Shown here in pieces: positions 1 to 10,769 of a stretch of 11,007 nt of DNA. The notes beneath the pieces were generated by a model, which was given only the letters and a program-made list of their open reading frames with translations, did no database searches and was not told the DNA's origin. Each line of letters opens with the position of its first letter. The first letter of the stretch is position 1. The position numbers and the translations under genes were made by a program. Source of the DNA: a virus (lineage: Duplodnaviria > Heunggongvirae > Uroviricota > Caudoviricetes); IMG/VR virus record IMGVR_UViG_3300029577_000220, positions 1-11,007 of that record; one strand, given 5' to 3'.

Positions 1-1505
1 TGGTCTCTCATCCTTCTCCACTGCTGTACAAAATATAGTCTTAGCGTGGGATAATTTCCGTTTTCCAAGCGGACCCCTTTTTGTCCTCCATTCGCCCTGC
101 AAACAGGGTAGCCAGTTGGCCGATAATCAGAAGGTGAGACGCTCATAAGCTCTTTGCTGATGGTGGCCGACAGTGCGTCTTCGGTCATTTCACCGATTCC
201 GTCTTCCATCTCGTCGAGCGCCTTTAGCGCCTCCTCCAGAGTCATTTCATCCGGCGCAGGAACAAAGCCAGACTCACTGTCTTTGGGCACTTCCGCACCA
301 TCTTTATTTTCTTTGCCTTCGACGTCTTCTTCAGTTTCCCCACGATCAGTATCGGAGTCCTCACCGCCATCACCATCGATGCCAGAGCCATAACCATCAG
401 AATCATCGGTATCTTCGCGAATACCATCGCCAGGTCTTGGAGCGCCAGTGCCATTGCTGCCATCATCATCGGTGTCAGAGTCACTTGATTTCATGCCGAT
501 AGCATCGGATTCTGGGGTGTCTCCTGACTCTTCGTGGCCTGCTTCTGTATATTTACTTTCTGTATCACTAATATCTTTAACGTGTGTAGGTAAGTCCTTA
601 TCTAATGAATCAGGCAAATCGGAATCCCCAGAATCTTCCTCTTCTGATGCATCATCTTCTCGTTCTTCCTTGTCATCGCCTTCGCCTTTGGCAGGCTTAG
701 ATGCAGAGTCACCATGAGACGGCTCGTCACCTGATTCTGGCGTTTCCTCGGACTCGTCTTTGCTCTCCGACGGCTTTCTGGCAGATGATTTAAGTTCTGG
801 TAATTTGCCCTCTGGCTTGTCTTTCATATCCTGCATGATTTGGGCTATAGCAGCAGCGACCTTCACGCAATCCTCAGTGTTCGACATATTGCGAACGGCC
901 ACGTCTATACCATGCTCCTTTAGTAAGGCTACCGGCCTCTCGATAAGGCGCCAGTGTTCTTCCATAAAATCGATGAAGGGGCTTTGTCCATCCCAGGCGC
1001 GGACGACCGGGCAAAGGAAGAATTTCAAAAACAATTCACGCTGGTCTCCGTGACAGGCTAAAACCGCTTCTGGTACTTTATTCCTGAAGTATTTGTCGAT
1101 AACCAGACTCTGTGTTGCAAGTAAATTACGCCGGGTTCCGTTAAAGACCTGCCCCATTCTGCGTTCAATAAAAACGTCTTCCAGCGCATTCCAAAGCCCC
1201 GTAGACGGAGCCTTTCCTCTTTCGCGCATCTGCATTGCGACTTTCGGTTCAGTAAAGAGAATATGGGCCACCTCATGGTCGAGAAAACCACGCACTGCGT
1301 TCATGAGGGTTGGCGACGCGTCGTCCGGTATAGATGGGATGTTTACCAGCACTGGTTCGCCGCGCCGGTTATAGCGGACATATGCTTCATTGCCTCGTTC
1401 TGCAACAGGTATTTGTTTACCTGAAAGCATCGCTACAACTCGTTTTACACAGTCGCGAAAATCCTGCACCTCTTTCAGTACAGCTTTGGTGGTTTTTTTG
1501 GACAT
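1..1505 (-). CDS. Large protein with N-terminal globular region followed by a ~200-aa D/E/S/G-rich acidic low-complexity linker; architecture resembles CobT-like (cobaltochelatase CobT / vWA-associated) proteins. Start ATG at 1503-1505; 3' end lies beyond the window start, so ~501 codons are in the window.
   Basis: Minus-strand frame set by ATG 1503-1505 is open to position 3 (translated by hand at both ends: MSKKTTKAVLKEVQDFRDCVKRVVAMLSGKQIPVAERGNEAY ... SPSDYRPTGYPVCRANGGQKGVRLENGNYPTLRLYFVQQWRRMRD). AAGGGA Shine-Dalgarno-like sequence ~8 nt upstream of the ATG. The Ser-rich plus-strand ORFs in the track (154..717) are antisense shadows of the acidic repeat region. Family assignment is from architecture only. 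Confidence 0.6.
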   Translation of the reverse strand, partial: MSKKTTKAVLKEVQDFRDCVKRVVAMLSGKQIPVAERGNEAYVRYNRRGEPVLVNIPSIPDDASPTLMNAVRGFLDHEVAHILFTEPKVAMQMRERGKAPSTGLWNALEDVFIERRMGQVFNGTRRNLLATQSLVIDKYFRNKVPEAVLACHGDQRELFLKFFLCPVVRAWDGQSPFIDFMEEHWRLIERPVALLKEHGIDVAVRNMSNTEDCVKVAAAIAQIMQDMKDKPEGKLPELKSSARKPSESKDESEETPESGDEPSHGDSASKPAKGEGDDKEEREDDASEEEDSGDSDLPDSLDKDLPTHVKDISDTESKYTEAGHEESGDTPESDAIGMKSSDSDTDDDGSNGTGAPRPGDGIREDTDDSDGYGSGIDGDGGEDSDTDRGETEEDVEGKENKDGAEVPKDSESGFVPAPDEMTLEEALKALDEMEDGIGEMTEDALSATISKELMSVSPSDYRPTGYPVCRANGGQKGVRLENGNYPTLRLYFVQQWRRMRD

Positions 1506-1558
1506 TAGAATTCCCTTGTTGTTAAAACAATTTGTTTTCTGATGTGCGTAATTTATCA

Positions 1559-1591
1559 CTGTACGAACAGGCATCTAATCTGTTCGTACAG
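1559..1591. promoter_or_regulatory. Perfect 12-bp inverted repeat CTGTACGAACAG-N9-CTGTTCGTACAG in the 5' leader/promoter region of the 1..1505 gene; candidate operator or leader stem-loop.
   Basis: Arms 1559-1570 and 1580-1591 are exact reverse complements; located 54 bp upstream of the start codon at 1505. Confidence 0.4.
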
Positions 1592-1605
1592 GCGCTAGAG
1601 AGGAT

Positions 1606-1618
1606 GGGAGGGGGGGGG
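1606..1618. repeat. Homopolymeric G tract (GGGAG followed by 8 G) between the stop of the 1619..1831 ORF and the start of the 1..1505 gene.
   Basis: Direct reading of 1601-1620: aggatgggag ggggggggtt. Confidence 0.6.
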
Positions 1619-1831
1619 TTAAATTGTGCGGACGGCTACTGAACCGCAGCCGGTATTGATGAGAGTGAAGCACTTGCCCTTTAGCTCAAAGATGTATGCG
1701 GTTGCGTCTTTCATGTCAAGTAACAAAGACTTTGTTGGCAGTTCAGTGAGTATGGCTGCTGCCCCATCATCGTCAATTGAAATCGTATGTCCGACCTCAA
1801 GGGCGATCAAATTAGAAGTTATTTTTTTCAT
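1619..1831 (-). CDS. Hypothetical small protein (70 aa), divergent from the HTH regulator gene.
   Basis: ATG at 1829-1831 (minus), weak GGATGA SD-like sequence upstream; shares a 247-bp AT-rich divergent intergenic region with the 2088..2477 gene. No recognisable domain. Confidence 0.3.
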   Translation of the reverse strand: MKKITSNLIALEVGHTISIDDDGAAAILTELPTKSLLLDMKDATAYIFELKGKCFTLINTGCGSVAVRTI

Positions 1832-2087
1832 TTCATATCATCCAACTGAACACGTAAATACCTTGCAATACTACTACCTATTGTATCAATACGGAATACT
1901 TATGTATCAAATACAACTTAGTTTTAAGTTCTTAAATGAGTTATTTTTTAGATAGTTGTCTATTAATGAAGCCTTTTGCGGTCAGTAAACCTATGTAAAA
2001 AAATAGATAAGTCTTTACAACACTAACCTTTGATGTAATATCAGTAAGCACTTACCAAATAAAATCAAAACACGCAGGTTGATAATT

Positions 2088-2477
2088 ATGGCTACCAACG
2101 AAACAAAAGAAGCTAAAGTAAGTCGCTACGCTGCTTACATTGACGCTTTAATCGCGATTTCTCCGAAAAGCCAGGCGACCATCGCGAAAGAAGCAGGCTA
2201 TAAAAACCCTAACAATCTTTCACTTATCAAGAGCGGCAAAATCCCGCTTCCGATCGACAAGGTCAGAGCGTTGGCTAAAGCATTGGATGCCGATTCGGTC
2301 CGATTGATGCTAATGGTGCTGGAAGAGCGTCATCCAGAGCTGTTAGCGTTTTTTCGCGACGAAGGCACAGCCCCTCTGACTAAAGATGAAAAACTAGTTC
2401 TGGAAGCCTTCCGTCGACGTTTCGGTGACCAACGTGGTGCGTCGGAGCGGGTTGTTGAGGCAATCAAGTCGCTATGA
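2088..2477 (+). CDS. XRE/Cro-CI-type helix-turn-helix transcriptional regulator (129 aa from ATG 2088; the track ORF begins at an upstream in-frame TTG at 2079).
   Basis: HTH_3-like segment SQATIAKEAGYKNPNNLSLIKSGKIPLPIDKVRALAKALDAD; AGGT ~9 nt upstream of ATG 2088; AT-rich upstream region; convergent with the integrase and overlapping its 3' end by 6 bp. Confidence 0.65.
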   Translation: MATNETKEAKVSRYAAYIDALIAISPKSQATIAKEAGYKNPNNLSLIKSGKIPLPIDKVRALAKALDADSVRLMLMVLEERHPELLAFFRDEGTAPLTKDEKLVLEAFRRRFGDQRGASERVVEAIKSL

Positions 2478-3575
2478 GAAATTTACACGGATTAGCTCAG
2501 TAGCGAGTCGATCTCCCTTGAACTTATGATCTATCTCCTCTAAATCCTGTTTCTCTACGATTGATGCGATGTACGCCGAAAAACTGTTTAAGGCGTCTCG
2601 CATCTCGTCTATATAATCGTGTCGATCGTATACTCGATCTATCCCCTCAAGACTGTGGTTCATAATTTTGCGGGATACCTCCTGACTTATGCCTAACGCG
2701 GGGAAGTAACTACGCGCAGTACGACGCAAATCTCGGGGAGTAAATGGCTCAAGCTCCATCAACTCTGGACGTTCTAAAATCCTTCTCAACGCCTGTGATA
2801 TGGCCACCTTAGACATTGGCACATCCTCACCCTGTTTCTTGTTTGAAGGAACAAGCCACTGGCTGCCTTTTCCGTATTTGATCAGCTCCTCAACACATTT
2901 GCGCATTAGCGGGCTTAATGGTAACGAGTGCTGGCGAGCCGATTTATTCCTCGTTCCTTGATTCCATAAATTATATTCGAGGTTGAATTCTGATCTTTTA
3001 GCTCGGAGCACTTCATCTGGTCGTCTGGCCGCTACAAGGCATAATCTGGCCGCCCACTTTGTACCCTCACATACGTTGAAGTAGTCCCATACATTCCAAA
3101 AGACCCAGACCTCTGCGTCGGTCAGTTTGCGCTCGCGCGGCGTGGGCTTCGCGCCACCGGCTACTCTGTTAAGCGACATATCGTTCAATGGGGATGTATC
3201 AATTAAGCCCTGAAATGCACACCAACTGAGAAACTGCTTCATCAGCGAGAACACACGTCTGCCCTGGACGATCTTGCCCTCAAGTATTAATGGGTTCACC
3301 AGCTGGTTGACTAAAACCCTACTAATATCACTTACTTTTACTTCACAGATATGCGGCATTACATGTATCAAAATACAATGAACAGCTATTTCAGGTCGAC
3401 GTCTCGTTATCAGCAAAGATAAGCGAGTGAATAACATGAATGCGGAAGAAAACGACATATCACCGTCGAAATTGGTGGTCGACACTGCTGACAAACCGGA
3501 AGCGCGTTCGAGATACTCGATGGCTTCTCTAGAGGTGTTTTCTGCTGCGCGTGCTTTATCAAAAGTGTTTTTCAT
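2472..3575 (-). CDS. int: Tyrosine recombinase/integrase, P4-like family, lacking the N-terminal arm-binding (DUF4102-type) domain; possibly a truncated remnant.
   Basis: C-terminal catalytic region FTPRDLRRTARSYFPALGISQEVSRKIMNHSLEGIDRVYDRHDYID matches the integrase box II / R..Y architecture; core-binding region ISRVLVNQLVNPLILEGKIVQGRRVFSLMKQFLSWCAFQGLID matches the P4-integrase core-binding pattern. The region upstream of 3575 (3576-3874) is AT-rich and non-coding, so no arm-binding domain is encoded. Confidence 0.85.
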   Translation of the reverse strand: MKNTFDKARAAENTSREAIEYLERASGLSAVSTTNFDGDMSFSSAFMLFTRLSLLITRRRPEIAVHCILIHVMPHICEVKVSDISRVLVNQLVNPLILEGKIVQGRRVFSLMKQFLSWCAFQGLIDTSPLNDMSLNRVAGGAKPTPRERKLTDAEVWVFWNVWDYFNVCEGTKWAARLCLVAARRPDEVLRAKRSEFNLEYNLWNQGTRNKSARQHSLPLSPLMRKCVEELIKYGKGSQWLVPSNKKQGEDVPMSKVAISQALRRILERPELMELEPFTPRDLRRTARSYFPALGISQEVSRKIMNHSLEGIDRVYDRHDYIDEMRDALNSFSAYIASIVEKQDLEEIDHKFKGDRLATELIRVNFS

Positions 3576-3672
3576 AGTCCACTCACTGAGTGAAGCCTGT
3601 TTTTACTGTATTTATAAACAGTATGTTAGGCCTAAGTTTTGTATGATCAACAGTAAAATAGACTGTTTTTGA

Positions 3673-3707
3673 AAATGATTCCATACCTTACAAGTATGGA
3701 ATCATTT
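3673..3707. promoter_or_regulatory. Perfect 14-bp inverted repeat AAATGATTCCATAC-N7-GTATGGAATCATTT in the integrase upstream region; candidate operator/recombinase-binding site.
   Basis: Arms 3673-3686 and 3694-3707 are exact reverse complements; the arm core GTATGGAATCAT recurs at 5326-5337 and 6346-6357. Confidence 0.45.
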
Positions 3708-3874
3708 ATATAGCTTACGTAAATTCTGAATAAATTATGTAGACAAACCATCTTAAACGCTAAATAGTAAAAAGCGCCTAATAACGCCAACTTTGGAATG
3801 CCATCTGAGCCAGATTGATGAGAATGATTTGTTAGAAGAAAAAGAATGATGAAGAAGATGACGATCGCTAAAGT

Positions 3875-4291
3875 TCAGCTAGAATGGAAACCTTCTGCGA
3901 CTTCAGCGAAGTAGCTGAGCAACCTAGTATCTCTTGCTGGCATACGATCGTGAGCTGGAGTGACTAGCCCCATCAGCAAAAAACGCCCGCTATCCCACAT
4001 GTGCTCGGTATAAACGAGATAGTGGTTTGAGGTTCGGTTGTAGTTCTCTTGCCTTGCGTTCCAGGTAAGCTGGAAATGCAAATTGACGTGAATATGCTGG
4101 ACATTAGCATCAACGGCGAACGGCGGGAAGTCAAATGGCGCATCTCGTCCAAGAAGATTAGATGGTGCGCCAGTTGATTTGTAAGTAATGAACTCGGATT
4201 TGAGCTGACTTTCTAGGTCAGGGTAAACGACAAAAGTGGGCTGAAAAAAATCATCCCACGTAACTTGACTGTATTCAGCCGTTAATGCCAT
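3875..4291 (-). CDS. YafO-family toxin (ribosome-dependent mRNA interferase type), 138 aa.
   Basis: Block-wise resemblance to E. coli YafO recalled from memory: FITYKSTGAPSNLLGRDAPFDF vs FISYKRDGVLPDIFGRDALYDD; VQHIHV vs VAHIHL; RTSNHYLVYTE vs RTNDEAHLVYCQ; FLLMGLVTPAHDRMPARD vs WLLIAILKPEPHKLARD; AEGF vs AEAF. Start ATG 4289-4291 overlaps the upstream gene's last codons by 10 nt. Confidence 0.7.
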   Translation of the reverse strand: MALTAEYSQVTWDDFFQPTFVVYPDLESQLKSEFITYKSTGAPSNLLGRDAPFDFPPFAVDANVQHIHVNLHFQLTWNARQENYNRTSNHYLVYTEHMWDSGRFLLMGLVTPAHDRMPARDTRLLSYFAEVAEGFHSS

Positions 4292-4830
4292 TTAGCCGCA
4301 GCCTTGTTGCCAGTCTCTAATAGATGGTTCATGGCTAAAAGGTTGACACCAGAGTCACGCACTACAGAAGTGCGTGTAATCTGATCAATCAGATTGAGAT
4401 AGTTTTTGGTCGCAATACTGACCATTTTAATAGCCTTAAAAAACGCAAACTCAACAGTGTTTTTTTCGTAAGACATGATGACGTCTTTTTCAGGTAACAT
4501 CAAAACAAAAGATTCTGCGATACCGGCTACATGAATAGTTTGATTCTTAATTTCTTCCGCTACTTTGATAGCAGCAAAGAAGTCAGTGTCAGCATAATGA
4601 GCAAGTTCAGCGCGGCTTGAACGCAGTTCTTTAGCCAATTCATTGAGAGCAGCTGTAAGATCACTGATGTCGGTTTTGTTGACTCTAGCGCCCATCTCAT
4701 AAACCCGTTCTACAATCGTAGGCTGACACGCAACCGCTTTGGGTTGCGGCTGGATACTGGCAAGAACCAGTGCCACTGCTGCCTGCAAATGCTGGATTTT
4801 AAATTTCACGATAGACTCCATAATCGTCAT
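4282..4830 (-). CDS. Hypothetical 182-aa protein translationally coupled to the YafO-like toxin; putative cognate antitoxin/partner, not YafN/RelB-like.
   Basis: ORF with ATG at 4828-4830; stop TAA 4282-4284 overlaps the start of the YafO-like gene; no recognisable RelB/DinJ/YafN-like sequence and roughly twice the size of YafN. Confidence 0.6.
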   Translation of the reverse strand: MTIMESIVKFKIQHLQAAVALVLASIQPQPKAVACQPTIVERVYEMGARVNKTDISDLTAALNELAKELRSSRAELAHYADTDFFAAIKVAEEIKNQTIHVAGIAESFVLMLPEKDVIMSYEKNTVEFAFFKAIKMVSIATKNYLNLIDQITRTSVVRDSGVNLLAMNHLLETGNKAAAKWH

Positions 4831-4908
4831 TTCTCGACGAAGCGTAGCATTCTACTACTGAACTTAACTATAAGCTAAAAAAAGTTGGTTGCATATGCGA
4901 CTTGATAG

Positions 4909-4929
4909 CAAAAAGGGGCCGAAGCCCCT
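4909..4929 (-). terminator. Rho-independent terminator downstream of tRNA-Asn (minus-strand sense GGGGC-UUCG-GCCCC followed by UUUUU).
   Basis: Plus strand 4910-4932 aaaaaggggccgaagcccctttg: 5-bp GC stem, UUCG tetraloop on the minus strand, T-run on the minus strand (A-run 4910-4914 on plus). Confidence 0.55.
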
Positions 4930-5005
4930 TTGGATTTTGCGCTGAAAAAAGTGTTGCTACGATGCTTAGAAGCAATGGTTAAAAAACGTCTGCCGTGTCT
5001 ATCAC

Positions 5006-5080
5006 AGCGCTGAACGGTCTGGCGACATTTGCGGAGTCTTTCGTTCGGACGGTGGTGGCGAATCCAAACCGTTCAGCGCT
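5006..5080. other. Long hairpin: 13-bp perfect inverted repeat (AGCGCTGAACGGT / ACCGTTCAGCGCT) enclosing 49 nt, immediately 3' of the tRNA; possible structured RNA or degenerate tRNA-like element.
   Basis: Arms 5006-5018 and 5068-5080 are exact reverse complements; the enclosed sequence does not fold as a cloverleaf by hand. Confidence 0.35.
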
Positions 5081-5084
5081 ATGT

Positions 5085-5159
5085 TGGCGATGGTGGGTGG
5101 ACTCGAACCACCGACCAGTTGATTAACAGTCAACCGCTCTACCACTGAGCTACACCATC
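5085..5159 (-). tRNA. tRNA-Asn (anticodon GUU), 75 nt with encoded CCA.
   Basis: Minus-strand sequence GATGGTGTAGCTCAGTGGTAGAGCGGTTGACTGTTAATCAACTGGTCGGTGGTTCGAGTCCACCCACCATCGCCA folds by hand: acceptor GATGGTG/CACCATC, D-stem GCTC/GAGC, anticodon stem GTTGA/TCAAC with loop CTGTTAA, T-stem GGTGG/CCACC with loop TTCGAGT, discriminator G, CCA. Confidence 0.85.
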
Positions 5160-5408
5160 ATTTTCGCGGCGGTACTAGCTTATGGACAACCAGGCAGCCA
5201 GAAACTTTCCCGTAACTTGCACTTTACGTTAGTGCCAGACGAGGTATGTGGCTCGCTCATATGAGCGAAGATCTCGAATCTTTCTCGGTGGTTGATTGCC
5301 GTTAGATTCTTCGATCTTATTGGATGTATGGAATCATACATGTTGTGAAGCCAGGGGCAATAAAGGCAACAATGTTTTCACTAGAGGGTTAATTAATCCT
5401 GCTTTCAC

Positions 5409-5518
5409 AACGTTGAGATCACTGAACCGATTAATGTTCAACCCAACATATTGATCAGTCGCTACAGCTATGTGGAATCGCCTGTATGATTTTAAGAAAA
5501 ATCAGTGATCTCAACGTT
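5409..5518. repeat. 17-bp perfect inverted repeat (AACGTTGAGATCACTGA ... TCAGTGATCTCAACGTT) separated by 76 bp in the non-coding region between the tRNA and the small-gene cluster; candidate structured ncRNA, origin-like element or MITE-like remnant.
   Basis: Arms 5409-5425 and 5502-5518 are exact reverse complements; no convincing ORF in 5160-5900. Confidence 0.4.
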
Positions 5519-5883
5519 ATGTGCTGACTAACCAAGTCAGCCGGGTTACGTCGCCGCTTTTAACCCAAGTATAAACGACATAAGTAATGGAAATGACGTA
5601 ACAGAATGGACGGTCAGCTGAAACCGGGATGGGTGAATGGAATGATGAAACCAACCGCCCATTCTGTTACTTCATTGAATGGGGCATGGATGGTGCAATA
5701 TGCCCTATTCTGCGTTCTGCAATCACACTCGCTCAGTGTGTCCCATTTTGGTGACGAGGCTGGAAACTGACCTCGCTGGTGTTTGGCTTCTTAGGCTACT
5801 GCCAGGTATGCATCTTCGTTTGCAGTTATATTTAACGTTCAAACAGTCGCATCTCAACGAAAACAAAGTGATCTTATACATAT

Positions 5884-6208: not shown

Positions 6209-6357
6209 TTTCGCACTCCCGTCTCGTGAACAACCCGATACACACGCTTACCGACACGAAGTGTTTTGGTTTGCAGTTCCTGCTGGACCAGGGCGCGGCA
6301 GATTGCGAGGCCGAGGCCCACGCCACCAGTAAAAGATAAAATGATGTATGGAATCAT
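6205..6357 (-). CDS. Hypothetical 50-aa protein with a hydrophobic N-terminus (MIPYIILSFTGGVGLGLAICRALVQQ...); not in the supplied ORF track (below the size cutoff).
   Basis: Hand translation: ATG at 6355-6357 overlaps the TGA of the 6357..6569 gene (TGATG), and its own TGA (6205-6207) overlaps the ATG of the 5903..6208 gene (ATGA). Confidence 0.3.
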   Translation of the reverse strand: MIPYIILSFTGGVGLGLAICRALVQQELQTKTLRVGKRVYRVVHETGVRK

Positions 6358-8643: not shown

Positions 8644-9099
8644 TTACCAGGTCGCCCAGCCAGTCATTTTGTCCTGAGCAGCTTCGAACCGGTATGGGTC
8701 CAGTAAATCGTTGGTACGATGAACGGCGTAGGATTTGGCTTCTTGTTTAATCATGGGTAATTCGTTGGCCAGACGAGCCACTTGCCCTGCAAAACTGGCG
8801 AGTACTCCGTCACATGCCTGACCCACGTCGACAATGATGCGCACCAGGTCTAAGTCGCTGCGGCACATATCGCAGATAATGCCGTATTCCACCTCACGAA
8901 TGCGCTCAACGGCTTTTTTGATATCGCCACTGACCACCAATTCCAGCAAACCAGGTGGAGTTGTCAGATCTGTTACGCGCTCGGTAACTTCAGACTGTTC
9001 GACAATACTCAGGAACGCCGCGATGGACGGGTCATCCGCCACACCAGCTCTGACTTTGAGCGTGCGAAGAGTTGCGTCGACAATATCCTCAAACCGTTC
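8644..9099 (-). pseudogene. 3' portion (151 codons) of a ~270-codon gene interrupted by IS629; product unknown.
   Basis: The track ORF 8644..9042 (GTG start) extends in frame, with no stop, up to the IS boundary at 9099 (ERFEDIVDATLRTLKVRAGV ADDPSIAAF...). The frame is continuous with the fragment at 10410..10769 once the IS and one TTC copy are removed. Confidence 0.7.
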
Positions 9100-9153
9100 T
9101 GAACCGCCCCGGAAATCCTGGAGACTAAACTCCCTGAGAAAGAGGTAAACAGG

Positions 9154-9480
9154 ATGACTAAAAATACTCGTTTTTCCCCCGAAGTCCGTCAGCGGGCGAT
9201 TCGTATGGTTCTGGAAAGTCAGGATGAATATGACTCACAGTGGGCGGCAATTTGTTCCATTGCCCCAAAGATTGGCTGTACGCCGGAGACTCTGCGTGTC
9301 TGGGTTCGCCAGCATGAGCGGGATACCGGGGGCGGTGATGGTGGGCTCACCAGCGCTGAACGTCAGCGTCTGAAAGAGCTGGAACGTGAAAATCGTGAAC
9401 TGCGCCGCAGTAACGATATCCTTCGCCAGGCTTCCGCTTATTTTGCGAAGGCGGAGTTCGACCGCCTCTGGAAAAAATGA
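9154..9480 (+). CDS. IS629 transposase OrfA (HTH and leucine-zipper part), 108 aa.
   Basis: [23 protein letters not shown]... is typical of IS629/IS1203-group OrfA; ends ...LWKK* at the A6 run 9472-9477, the expected -1 frameshift window. Confidence 0.9.
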
Positions 9481-10367
9481 TGCCACTGCTGGATAAGCTG
9501 CGTGAGCAGTACGGGGTCGGACCGGTATGCAGCGAACTGCATATTGCCCCGTCAACGTATTACCATTGTCAGCAACAGCGACATCATCCGGATAAACGCA
9601 GTGCCCGTGCGCAGCACGACGACTGGCTGAAGAGAGAGATACAGCGCGTATACGATGAAAATCATCAGGTGTACGGTGTGCGTAAAGTCTGGCGTCAGTT
9701 GTTACGGGAAGGAATCAGGGTGGCCAGATGTACAGTGGCACGTCTCATGGCGGTTATGGGACTTGCCGGTGTTCTCCGGGGTAAAAAGGTCCGTACGACC
9801 ATCAGCCGGAAAGCCGTTGCCGCAGGCGACCGCGTAAACCGTCAGTTCGTGGCAGAACGACCTGACCAGCTGTGGGTGGCTGATTTTACTTACGTCAGCA
9901 CATGGCAGGGCTTCGTCTATGTGGCGTTTATCATTGATGTGTTTGCCGGATACATCGTGGGGTGGCGGGTCTCATCGTCTATGGAAACGACATTCGTGCT
10001 GGATGCGCTGGAGCAGGCGTTGTGGGCCCGTCGTCCGTCTGGCACCATCCATCACAGCGATAAAGGCTCTCAGTATGTGTCACTGGCCTATACGGAGCGA
10101 CTAAAAGAAGCCGGATTACTGGCATCAACAGGGAGTACAGGCGACTCGTATGACAACGCGATGGCTGAGAGCATCAATGGTCTTTACAAAGCGGAGGTAA
10201 TACACCGTAAGAGCTGGAAAAACCGTGCAGAAGTGGAACTGGCCACACTAACGTGGGTGGACTGGTATAACAATCGACGATTGCTGGGAAGGCTGGGCCA
10301 TACTCCTCCGGCAGAAGCAGAAAAAGCTTATTATGCTTCCATCGGAAACGATGATCTGGCAGCCTGA
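9477..10367 (+). CDS. IS629 transposase OrfB (DDE/rve catalytic domain), 296 aa; expressed as an OrfAB fusion by -1 frameshifting.
   Basis: rve-type motifs [58 protein letters not shown]; overlaps orfA by 4 nt in the -1 frame. Confidence 0.9.
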
Positions 10368-10409
10368 GTTCACAGATAAAACACTCTCCAGGAAACCCGG
10401 GGCGGTTCA

Positions 10410-10769
10410 TTCACCTTCATCGCACACAGTCTGATTGGTGTAGACAGTCTGATTAGTGTAGACAATGCGACCGTCGTACCATGCACCGATACTCACTTCG
10501 ACCGTTGCGTCTTTCATCTCGCGAGAGAACGCCACAAGTGCCGCGCGTTTCTGCTTAACACCTGACAACTCCGGGGACTCTCCAAAACGAACCCAGACCT
10601 GCATGTATTTCGAGCCTTCCGAAAGAGGTACGGTGCTCACGGACGTGGCGATATGCTCCAGTGCAGTTTGGATCGCCTCGTCGATAATCTTCTGGCGCTC
10701 TTCTGTATCAATTTCTACGCCGGATTTGTCGATGATGTCGCAGACTAACTTCTGAAATTCTTCTTTCAT
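10410..10769 (-). pseudogene. 5' portion (120 codons) of the IS629-interrupted gene; its promoter and RBS are intact.
   Basis: ATG at 10767-10769 with AGGAG 7 nt upstream; the ORF runs into the IS629 right end, where it meets a stop supplied by the IS terminal TGA (10407-10409). Confidence 0.7.
10428..10463. repeat. 18-bp tandem duplication (AGTCTGATTGGTGTAGAC / AGTCTGATTAGTGTAGAC) inside the interrupted gene, encoding VYTNQT twice.
   Basis: Units 10428-10445 and 10446-10463 differ at one position; in frame. Confidence 0.6.

Follow-up and report, generated by a model that had tools for sequence, protein, structure and literature searches.

In all probability, the tRNA gene described here encodes a functional asparagine tRNA that belongs to the backbone of the SSU5 group of phage-plasmids, and that most likely supplies Asn decoding independent of the host tRNA pool for the translation of Asn-rich virion proteins. 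The gene lies in a stretch of viral DNA of 11,007 nucleotides, which was analysed at its full length and is referred to below as the window. We hold its identity as a tRNA-Asn with high confidence and the proposed selective reason, a supply of Asn-decoding capacity during virion production, with moderate confidence. The feature is already known: the tRNA-Asn is annotated in SSU5 and in many SSU5-type plasmids of E. coli, including pEC21Z137-115K (GenBank/RefSeq), and a homologous tRNA-Asn is annotated in P1. As a finding the tRNA is ordinary in itself, since tRNAs are common in phages and phage-plasmids and this one has been annotated, while its role bears on the completion of the lytic cycle by phage-plasmids, in which resistance genes are increasingly found.

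The gene was located as follows:

5085-5159, minus strand: tRNA-Asn(GUU) gene with G73 and an encoded CCA, called by ARAGORN, by Rfam model RF00005 and by identity to SSU5

It is the single tRNA that ARAGORN finds in the 11-kb window (anticodon GTT), and its score with the Rfam tRNA model, 76.2 bits, exceeds the gathering score of 29 (E = 1e-15). At permissive thresholds, Rfam reports nothing besides the tRNA between 4850 and 5950. The sequence, GATGGTGTAGCTCAGTGGTAGAGCGGTTGACTGTTAATCAACTGGTCGGTGGTTCGAGTCCACCCACCATCGCCA, gives a cloverleaf whose stems measure 7/4/5/5 bp and which has the conserved D and T loops; the anticodon loop reads CUGUUAA, and the discriminator base G73 directly precedes the encoded CCA. 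The ARAGORN call and the Rfam score bear out the initial annotation, which had recognised a canonical cloverleaf with a GUU anticodon and an encoded CCA but had given no strand. The bacterial Asn identity set consists of the anticodon G34-U35-U36 and the discriminator G73 (PMC9976931), and this set is intact in the sequence of the element tRNA.

IncFIB-typed E. coli plasmids with an SSU5 backbone, pEC21Z137-115K among them, match the window at 99.8% identity over about 9 kb, and Salmonella phage SSU5 matches it at about 90%. Plasmids of the pEC21Z137-115K type carry a full siphovirus structural module together with replication and partition genes of their own. Plasmid matches that bring virion, replication and partition genes, combined with the identity to SSU5, identify the window at the sequence level as an SSU5-group phage-plasmid of E. 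coli, and settle that it is not a chromosomal island at a tRNA. In SSU5 (JQ965645.1, 42525-42599), the 75-nt tRNA is 100% identical to that of the window. In both SSU5 and pEC21Z137-115K, as in the window, the gene lies downstream of a block formed by an ATP-dependent ligase and small ORFs, and adjoins a CobT-like gene. The neighbouring IS629, from which an enterobacterial host had initially been suggested, is real: it occupies about 9100-10410, includes its frameshift pseudoknot, and is a private insertion with a 3-bp target duplication that interrupts the homologue of SSU5_042.

The element tRNA differs markedly from the corresponding tRNA of the host. As host reference we used the asnT, asnU, asnV and asnW genes of E. 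coli K-12, all four of which are mutually identical. In the alignment, the element tRNA matches them in 52 of 76 columns (68%). The differences comprise five of the seven acceptor pairs, one D-stem pair, two T-stem pairs, 2 + 3 bases of the anticodon stem and two variable-loop bases, and the D loop is one base shorter in the element tRNA. Every stem is affected, and nearly all of the changes fall in stems, as compensating pairs that keep the pairing. At the end of the acceptor stem, the host tRNA-Asn has the 1-72 pair U1-A72 and the element tRNA has G1-C72. In contrast, the GUU anticodon, the anticodon loop, the T loop, positions 8-9, position 26, G73 and CCA are the same in both, and the shared anticodon, loops, G73 and CCA presumably mean that the two tRNAs are served by the same synthetase and read the same codons. 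The earlier impression that the acceptor stem and the D and T arms are unlike those of the enterobacterial asn tRNA is therefore well founded.

The distribution of the gene, together with its sequence, supports the view that it belongs to the element and is neither a host gene nor an attB site: it is identical in SSU5, its matches are bound to plasmids, and a second copy of the tRNA 3' end is lacking at the borders of the integrase segment. Matches were found in 773 of 5,426 complete E. coli genomes (about 14%), nearly all of them being members of the same tRNA family, and this frequency of plasmid matches gives the role of the tRNA some practical weight. The 804 matching places in these genomes divide into 795 on plasmids and 9 on chromosomes. 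At an identity of at least 95% there are 37 records, all of them replicons of 85-324 kb, and no chromosomal match among the 5,426 genomes. An exact match to a chromosomal asn gene, which the initial annotation had named as the observation that would speak for an island next to a host tRNA, was likewise sought in these 5,426 genomes, with a negative result. One of the chromosomal places was inspected (90.8% identity) and consists of a P1-like prophage block with dmt, tRNA-Asn, tRNA-Thr, tRNA-Ile and dnaB. A degenerate pattern that spans the whole phage tRNA-Asn family, and that misses more distant cellular relatives, was run against 185,579 species, each represented by one genome, and matched only two contigs, one of 108.7 kb from Kluyvera and one of 83.3 kb from Escherichia; the latter bears the P1-type Asn-Thr pair.

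Among SSU5-type elements, the tRNA is 93-99% conserved (98.7% identity in pJN2-26, 94.7% in Cyrano and 93.3% in CMS-2020a), while the surrounding backbone of Cyrano and pJN2-26 is about 77% identical. Members of the same family occur in N4-like podoviruses (92%) and in P1, P7 and D6-type phage-plasmids (90.8%). In the SSU5-type, N4-like and P1-like examples, the tRNA-Asn always opens a short array. The array is Asn-Thr(UGU)-Ser(UGA) in Cyrano, Asn-Ser-Thr-Pro in N4, Asn-Tyr-Thr in another P1-like phage and, according to the annotation of the P1 record, Asn-Thr(UGU) followed farther downstream by Ile in P1, where it lies in the C1-repressed ban operon. P1 is a phage-plasmid like the window element, and the tRNA-Asn of P1 and P7 shares the G1-C72 acceptor stem. 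However, the P1 gene is 76 nt long owing to one more D-loop base, has other neighbours and is associated with C1 operators. N4 differs from the window element in being a virulent podovirus without a plasmid state, and its tRNAs are unannotated in the N4 record.

To describe the locus across the SSU5 group, 80 SSU5-type loci were gathered from IMG/VR via the neighbouring ligase, and 60 of them were scanned for tRNAs. An intact tRNA-Asn(GTT) is the first tRNA in 58 of these 60 loci, 1.4-1.9 kb past the ATP-dependent ligase. The most frequent array is Asn-Tyr-Thr-Ser (29 loci, and one more that is ended by a contig edge), followed by Asn only (20 loci), Asn-Ser (6 loci) and Asn-Thr-Ser (2 loci); the window element, with tRNA-Asn as its sole tRNA, has the Asn-only version of the array. 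Two loci are exceptions: in L023, an 85-bp deletion takes the 5' 43 nt of the tRNA-Asn, and in L084 the same tRNA carries a single change that converts the anticodon from GTT to GTG. These natural variants indicate that the tRNA-Asn is dispensable, at least for plasmid carriage.

In an alignment of seven sequences, the cloverleaf is 99.3% paired and 11 pairs are changed on both sides, far above shuffled and slid controls. Compensation is also seen within the family, with an exchange between AU and GC at 31:39 and between GC and AU at 50:64, and G1-C72 is present in every aligned member of the phage tRNA-Asn family. Judged by this pattern of sequence change, the tRNA-Asn is under purifying selection and is a backbone feature of the SSU5 group. 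The proposal in the initial annotation that the tRNA is cargo of a mobile element rather than an integration target is thus supported, with one correction. The gene is element-borne and not an attB site, as shown by the lack of a chromosomal copy at 95% identity or more and of a repeat of its 3' end, but its presence in 58 of 60 relatives makes it a conserved backbone gene and not occasional cargo.

What the tRNA contributes was approached through codon demand. Codons were counted in ORFs of at least 120 aa, over 99 kb of a 115-kb sister plasmid and over 50 kb of K-12 as the host sample. Asn accounts for 4.60% of codons in the sister plasmid and for 4.15% in the K-12 sample, a ratio of about 1.1; within the sister plasmid, the tail fibres (5.85%) and the major capsid protein (6.5%) are richer in Asn. 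Among the Asn codons, AAC takes a fraction of 0.55 in the element, compared with 0.56 for the host sample. The AAC/AAU comparison that had been suggested as a check therefore cannot discriminate: total Asn is slightly higher in the element, but the AAC fraction is equal. Compensation for rare codons in the classical sense was rejected, because the AAC fraction is host-like and one tRNA reads both codons, which also renders the codon test uninformative. E. coli has four asn genes of its own, and a simple supply for late-gene translation is a plausible but weak explanation. A precedent for expression in the lytic phase is provided by the P1 homologue in its C1-repressed operon.

A supply of Asn decoding would require that the tRNA be transcribed, processed and charged. 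The minus-strand transcript would start at a promoter about 170-200 nt before the gene, or it would arise as read-through of the operon of the ligase and small ORFs, and the sequence makes the two routes equally possible; the start of the tRNA transcription unit is accordingly given as uncertain. Two minus-strand promoters are predicted upstream of the tRNA, where 2.2 are expected by chance, and the nearer one, at 5333-5360, has a -35 element that is not conserved in Cyrano. The following features surround the gene:

4908-4931, minus strand: strong intrinsic terminator, GGGGCUUCGGCCCC followed by U5, read from the sequence and conserved in Cyrano

4982-5008: weaker hairpin with a U-run, from a terminator scan

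4995-5084, minus strand: conserved long hairpin with a 20-bp stem (inverted repeat, RNA fold z = -3.8, covariance model R1)

5326-5337, minus strand: 12-mer ATGATTCCATAC, separated by 167 nt from the tRNA 5' end on its upstream side and overlapping the -10 hexamer of the nearer predicted promoter

5399-5522, minus strand: upstream hairpin, a paralogue of the 3' hairpin (inverted repeat; R1 score of 34 bits at 29712-29835 of the sister plasmid, L006)

5593-5669, minus strand: weaker hairpin, the third of the locus, within the non-coding leader of 740 nt (inverted repeat, arms 5592-5614 and 5654-5676)

The terminator at 4908-4931 is the likely end of the transcription unit. From such a transcript, the tRNA-Asn would be excised by host RNase P and 3' processing enzymes, and the long flanking stems might be cut by RNase III; as the CCA is encoded, no CCA addition would be needed. 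The host AsnRS should charge the product, given that G34-U35-U36 and G73 are intact, and the charged tRNA would decode AAC and AAU.

The long hairpin on the 3' side begins 1 nt past the tRNA CCA, with arms at 5003-5022 and 5064-5083 and the loop motif AAGACUCCGC. No Rfam family matches it. We surveyed it with the covariance model R1, which was built from three elements. The model gives the hairpin of the window (4995-5084) 98.3 bits and recovers it with 80-103 bits from most SSU5-type loci, where the hairpin usually follows, by 1-2 nt, whichever tRNA ends the array. It was considered as a decayed second tRNA, a reading that was rejected since ARAGORN and Rfam are blank there and since the hairpin trails the last tRNA in most relatives with two to four tRNAs. 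The aligned cells of the stem are 97.7% paired, but both arms are also conserved in sequence, and with only two covarying pairs and 11 that never vary the structural proof is limited. A covariance model search of the P1-like locus L012 found no R1-type hairpin.

The upstream hairpin has arms at 5406-5425 and 5502-5521 that are 95% complementary. Within 99 kb of the sister plasmid, the places of the 3' hairpin and of this hairpin are the only ones with the arm motif CACARCGYTGAR. For the third hairpin the R1 score is marginal, 17 bits with E = 0.09 at the equivalent position of the sister plasmid (L006, 29906-29982). In this 115-kb plasmid, the R1 hairpin family is confined to the tRNA locus, and a generic intergenic repeat was discarded as an explanation for that reason. 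Stems of the 20-bp class have the size of RNase III substrates, and from their length the hairpins may be processing sites. They may alternatively give rise to released small RNAs, or have a role at the DNA level, for example as a lytic origin in this region of replication genes.

The 12-mer of the tRNA leader recurs in the neighbouring recombinase region, which contains:

2472-3575, minus strand: tyrosine recombinase, given for context (Pfam PF00589, E = 6.5e-9)

3673-3707, no strand: perfect palindrome, two 14-bp arms around a 7-bp spacer, AAATGATTCCATAC cttacaa GTATGGAATCATTT, holding two copies of the 12-mer

3875-4291: YafO-family toxin (Pfam, E = 1e-19)

The toxin lies 0.8 kb and the recombinase 1.5 kb from the tRNA, the distances given in the initial annotation. 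Four exact copies of the 12-mer are present in the window, against 0.04 expected: the two in the palindrome, the one at 5326-5337, and one at 6346-6357, falling on the start codon of a 50-aa ORF. Cyrano and pJN2-26, with a backbone identity of about 77%, have the 12-mer unchanged at each of the four positions, and it is the most conserved block of the tRNA leader. In SSU5, unlike the window, the copy upstream of the tRNA has one mismatch. These observations point to a putative protein-binding site that would link the tRNA leader to the recombinase region. The palindrome itself lies about 100 bp upstream of the recombinase gene, and Cyrano and pJN2-26 keep it beside their integrase. We regard it as a candidate operator or site of recombination, and treat it as context rather than as an established part of the tRNA unit.

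It is possible, if unlikely, that the tRNA-Asn serves as a spare which keeps translation going once a tRNase (a CDI toxin, a colicin, or an abortive-infection or toxin-antitoxin nuclease) has destroyed the host tRNA-Asn, its stems and above all G1-C72 making it a poor substrate. The CdiA-CT(EC869) toxin of enterohaemorrhagic E. coli cuts tRNA-Asn, tRNA-Gln and tRNA-Trp between positions 71 and 72, requires G73 together with a weak or mismatched 1-72 pair, and cleaves a G1-C72 variant of tRNA-Gln inefficiently (PMC9071432). The preference of this toxin for a weak 1-72 pair, set beside the weak U1-A72 of the host and the G1-C72 of every aligned family member, leads to the prediction, by analogy, that the element tRNA would be a poor substrate for acceptor-stem tRNases. 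That change is nearly all in stems and takes in five of the seven acceptor pairs, including 1-72, with the AsnRS determinants kept, agrees with such a role. Precedents for rescue of infection by the tRNAs of T5-like phages are tRNA-Lys against PARIS and PrrC170 and tRNA-Tyr against retron-Eco7 (PMC11464382, PMC11555353); like the window tRNA, these are phage-borne duplicates of a host isoacceptor and possible spares when the host tRNA is cleaved.

Several observations weigh against a role as a spare. The CDI toxin is an interbacterial weapon, and resistance through G1-C72 is extrapolated from a variant of tRNA-Gln. The anticodon loop is identical to that of the host, so that anticodon nucleases of the colicin E5 type would not be evaded and the anticodon-loop-evasion hypothesis (PMC10264068) does not apply. 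The nuclease defences countered by the T5-like tRNAs are known (PARIS/PrrC, retron-Eco7), in contrast to one that cleaves tRNA-Asn, and the literature on tRNA-targeting defences (PARIS, PrrC170, retron-Eco7, anticodon-loop evasion) nowhere names tRNA-Asn as a target. A phage tRNA-Asn gave phages no rescue from PrrC170. Divergent stems are, in addition, what foreign ancestry alone would predict.

If the tRNA were such a spare, tRNA-Asn and the acceptor-stem tRNases would join the short list of tRNA-based arms races, and it would be explained why a host-abundant isoacceptor is the constant first array member in three unrelated phage groups. Distinctly improbable, in our assessment, is the extended proposal that the tRNA-Asn of SSU5-, P1- and N4-type phages is a purpose-built spare proof against acceptor tRNases and that, in the SSU5 type, it forms one regulated unit with the three locus-specific hairpins and the putative 12-mer protein site common to the recombinase promoter region. 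What novelty may be left at this locus would lie in the idea of a G1-C72 spare, which is argued by analogy, and in the locus-specific architecture of hairpins and 12-mer.

We consider it very improbable that the gene, once acquired horizontally, now brings no benefit and is kept by linkage, as a neutral passenger or relic. The existence of the truncated variant L023 and the anticodon variant L084 fits this description, as does the weak codon-usage signal. However, a passenger would not be expected to show 93-99% conservation in a background of about 77%, to be intact in 58 of 60 relatives or to accumulate compensatory stem changes, and the same family has been kept in P1-like and N4-like phages.

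Genomic islands integrate at chromosomal asn tRNA genes, as exemplified by the Yersinia high-pathogenicity island. Like such islands, the window has a tyrosine recombinase and accessory genes 3' of a tRNA-Asn; unlike them, it has a tRNA that is not chromosomal, no duplicated tRNA 3' end, and a recombinase module that is an old part of the backbone. Relative to SSU5, the window contains 3,416 extra bases, at about 1637-5052, which start 33 bp beyond the tRNA 3' end. This segment comprises a 70-aa ORF, a 132-aa protein, the recombinase, the YafO toxin and a 182-aa partner, and its junctions with SSU5 carry the 7-bp direct repeat CGGACGG. The 132-aa protein has no Pfam match, and its counterpart in Cyrano is annotated as an HTH putative repressor. 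A comparison of the recombinase with PDB sequences gave no match, so that it is not assignable to the Cre type.

The recombinase and HTH module is found at the same place in Cyrano and pJN2-26, at a divergence close to that of the backbone. The genes that separate the recombinase from the tRNA array vary, with YafO in the window, glutaredoxin and other genes in Cyrano, and PhoH and other genes in pJN2-26, and transposons near tRNA loci have been reported in SSU5-type elements (bioRxiv 10.1101/2025.09.12.675607). This variable gene content, taken with the transposons, marks the flank as a hot spot for cargo and not the tRNA as an attB site. That the tRNA or its 3' flank was an integration or recombination target at which the recombinase inserted its own segment of about 3.4 kb, together with YafO, is hardly credible: the start of the extra bases 33 bp past the tRNA, their CGGACGG borders, the variable genes and the reported transposons could be read in this way, but the module occupies the same place, with backbone-like divergence, in the distant Cyrano and pJN2-26, the tRNA is not a host gene, the recombinase has a 14-7-14 palindrome of its own beside its gene, and no direct repeat of the tRNA 3' end is present at the far border (searched over 1300-5400).

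The CGGACGG repeat instead probably marks a deletion in SSU5. As the module is kept in Cyrano and pJN2-26, the difference is more simply read as a loss from SSU5 than as an insertion in the window, and the sequences are most simply explained if SSU5 lost the 3.4-kb recombinase, HTH and toxin segment by microhomology deletion at the 7-bp repeat, including the 3' arm of the conserved hairpin, which SSU5 lacks. Such a deletion would fit the description of SSU5 as virulent (PMC5427195).

The tRNA-Asn(GUU) gene of the window is followed by a conserved hairpin, which in most of the SSU5-type loci examined begins 1–2 nt past the last tRNA of the array. The hairpin carries the conserved loop motif AAGACUCCGC, shows covariation at two pairs and gave no family match in Rfam. 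Its 3' arm is lost in Salmonella phage SSU5 itself. Two more long hairpins, both weak paralogues of the 3' hairpin, lie upstream of the tRNA in a non-coding leader of 740 nt, and within the 115-kb sister plasmid this hairpin family is confined to the tRNA locus.

Hairpins flanking the tRNA (window coordinates).
4995–5084, minus strand: conserved hairpin 3' of the array, 20-bp stem; also at 5817–5903 in L003 and 4677–4766 in L004, loci of SSU5-type relatives
5399–5522: long hairpin in the upstream leader, arms 5406–5425 and 5502–5521
5593–5669: long hairpin in the upstream leader, arms 5592–5614 and 5654–5676

Two close relatives carry altered copies of the tRNA. In L084 (9118–9192), the anticodon is changed from GTT to GTG in an otherwise identical Asn body, and in L023 (~8860–8890) the tRNA lacks its 5'-terminal 43 nt through an 85-bp deletion.

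A 3,416-bp segment of the window (~1637–5052) is missing in SSU5 (L002, ~3536–3542), and a 7-bp CGGACGG is common to both of its junctions. The segment contains a 70-aa ORF, a 132-aa protein whose counterpart in the distant relative Cyrano carries the annotation 'HTH putative repressor', a tyrosine recombinase and a YafO cassette. Relatives retain the module, and SSU5 has therefore undergone a deletion, a loss that may account for the description of this phage as virulent.

YafO cassette (window coordinates).
3875–4830, minus strand: YafO-family toxin (138 aa) and an upstream 182-aa ORF

The toxin gene and the 182-aa ORF overlap by 10 nt. The latter, which has no convincing match in Pfam, is presumably the antitoxin, though unusually large for one. 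The cassette sits in a slot of variable content, flanked by the recombinase and the tRNA array, that is occupied in relatives by glutaredoxin, PhoH and other genes.

The 12-mer ATGATTCCATAC occurs in four exact copies in the window, against 0.04 expected.

Exact copies of ATGATTCCATAC (window coordinates).
3675–3686, plus strand
3694–3705, minus strand
5326–5337, minus strand
6346–6357, minus strand

Upstream of the recombinase gene, two copies make up a palindrome that is perfect in its 14-7-14 layout. Conservation is perfect at all four positions in elements with a backbone just ~77% identical, and the repeat is a likely protein-binding site, an operator or lox-like site.

Elsewhere in the window, IS629 interrupts a homolog of SSU5_042 with a target duplication of 3 bp; the sister plasmid lacks this insertion.

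IS629 and the gene it splits (window coordinates).
~9100–10409: IS629; its ALIL frameshift pseudoknot lies at 9435–9551
8644–9042 and 10407–10769, minus strand: ORFs representing the two halves of the SSU5_042 homolog

At its left end (1–117), the window is no longer colinear with the sister plasmid's CobT-like 'porphyrin biosynthesis' gene. Bases 77–118 match a stretch of the sister locus (L001) 660 bp further upstream, while bases 1–76 found no match within that locus, an arrangement suggesting that the CobT-like gene is internally deleted or rearranged.

Outside the window, the sister plasmid also carries a DUF1778 and GNAT acetyltransferase gene pair (L006, NZ_CP101235.1, 47131–47929), a kind of pair that other annotations assign to tRNA-acetylating toxin-antitoxin systems. 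The pair is of interest as another tRNA-directed function on the same element as the tRNA-Asn.
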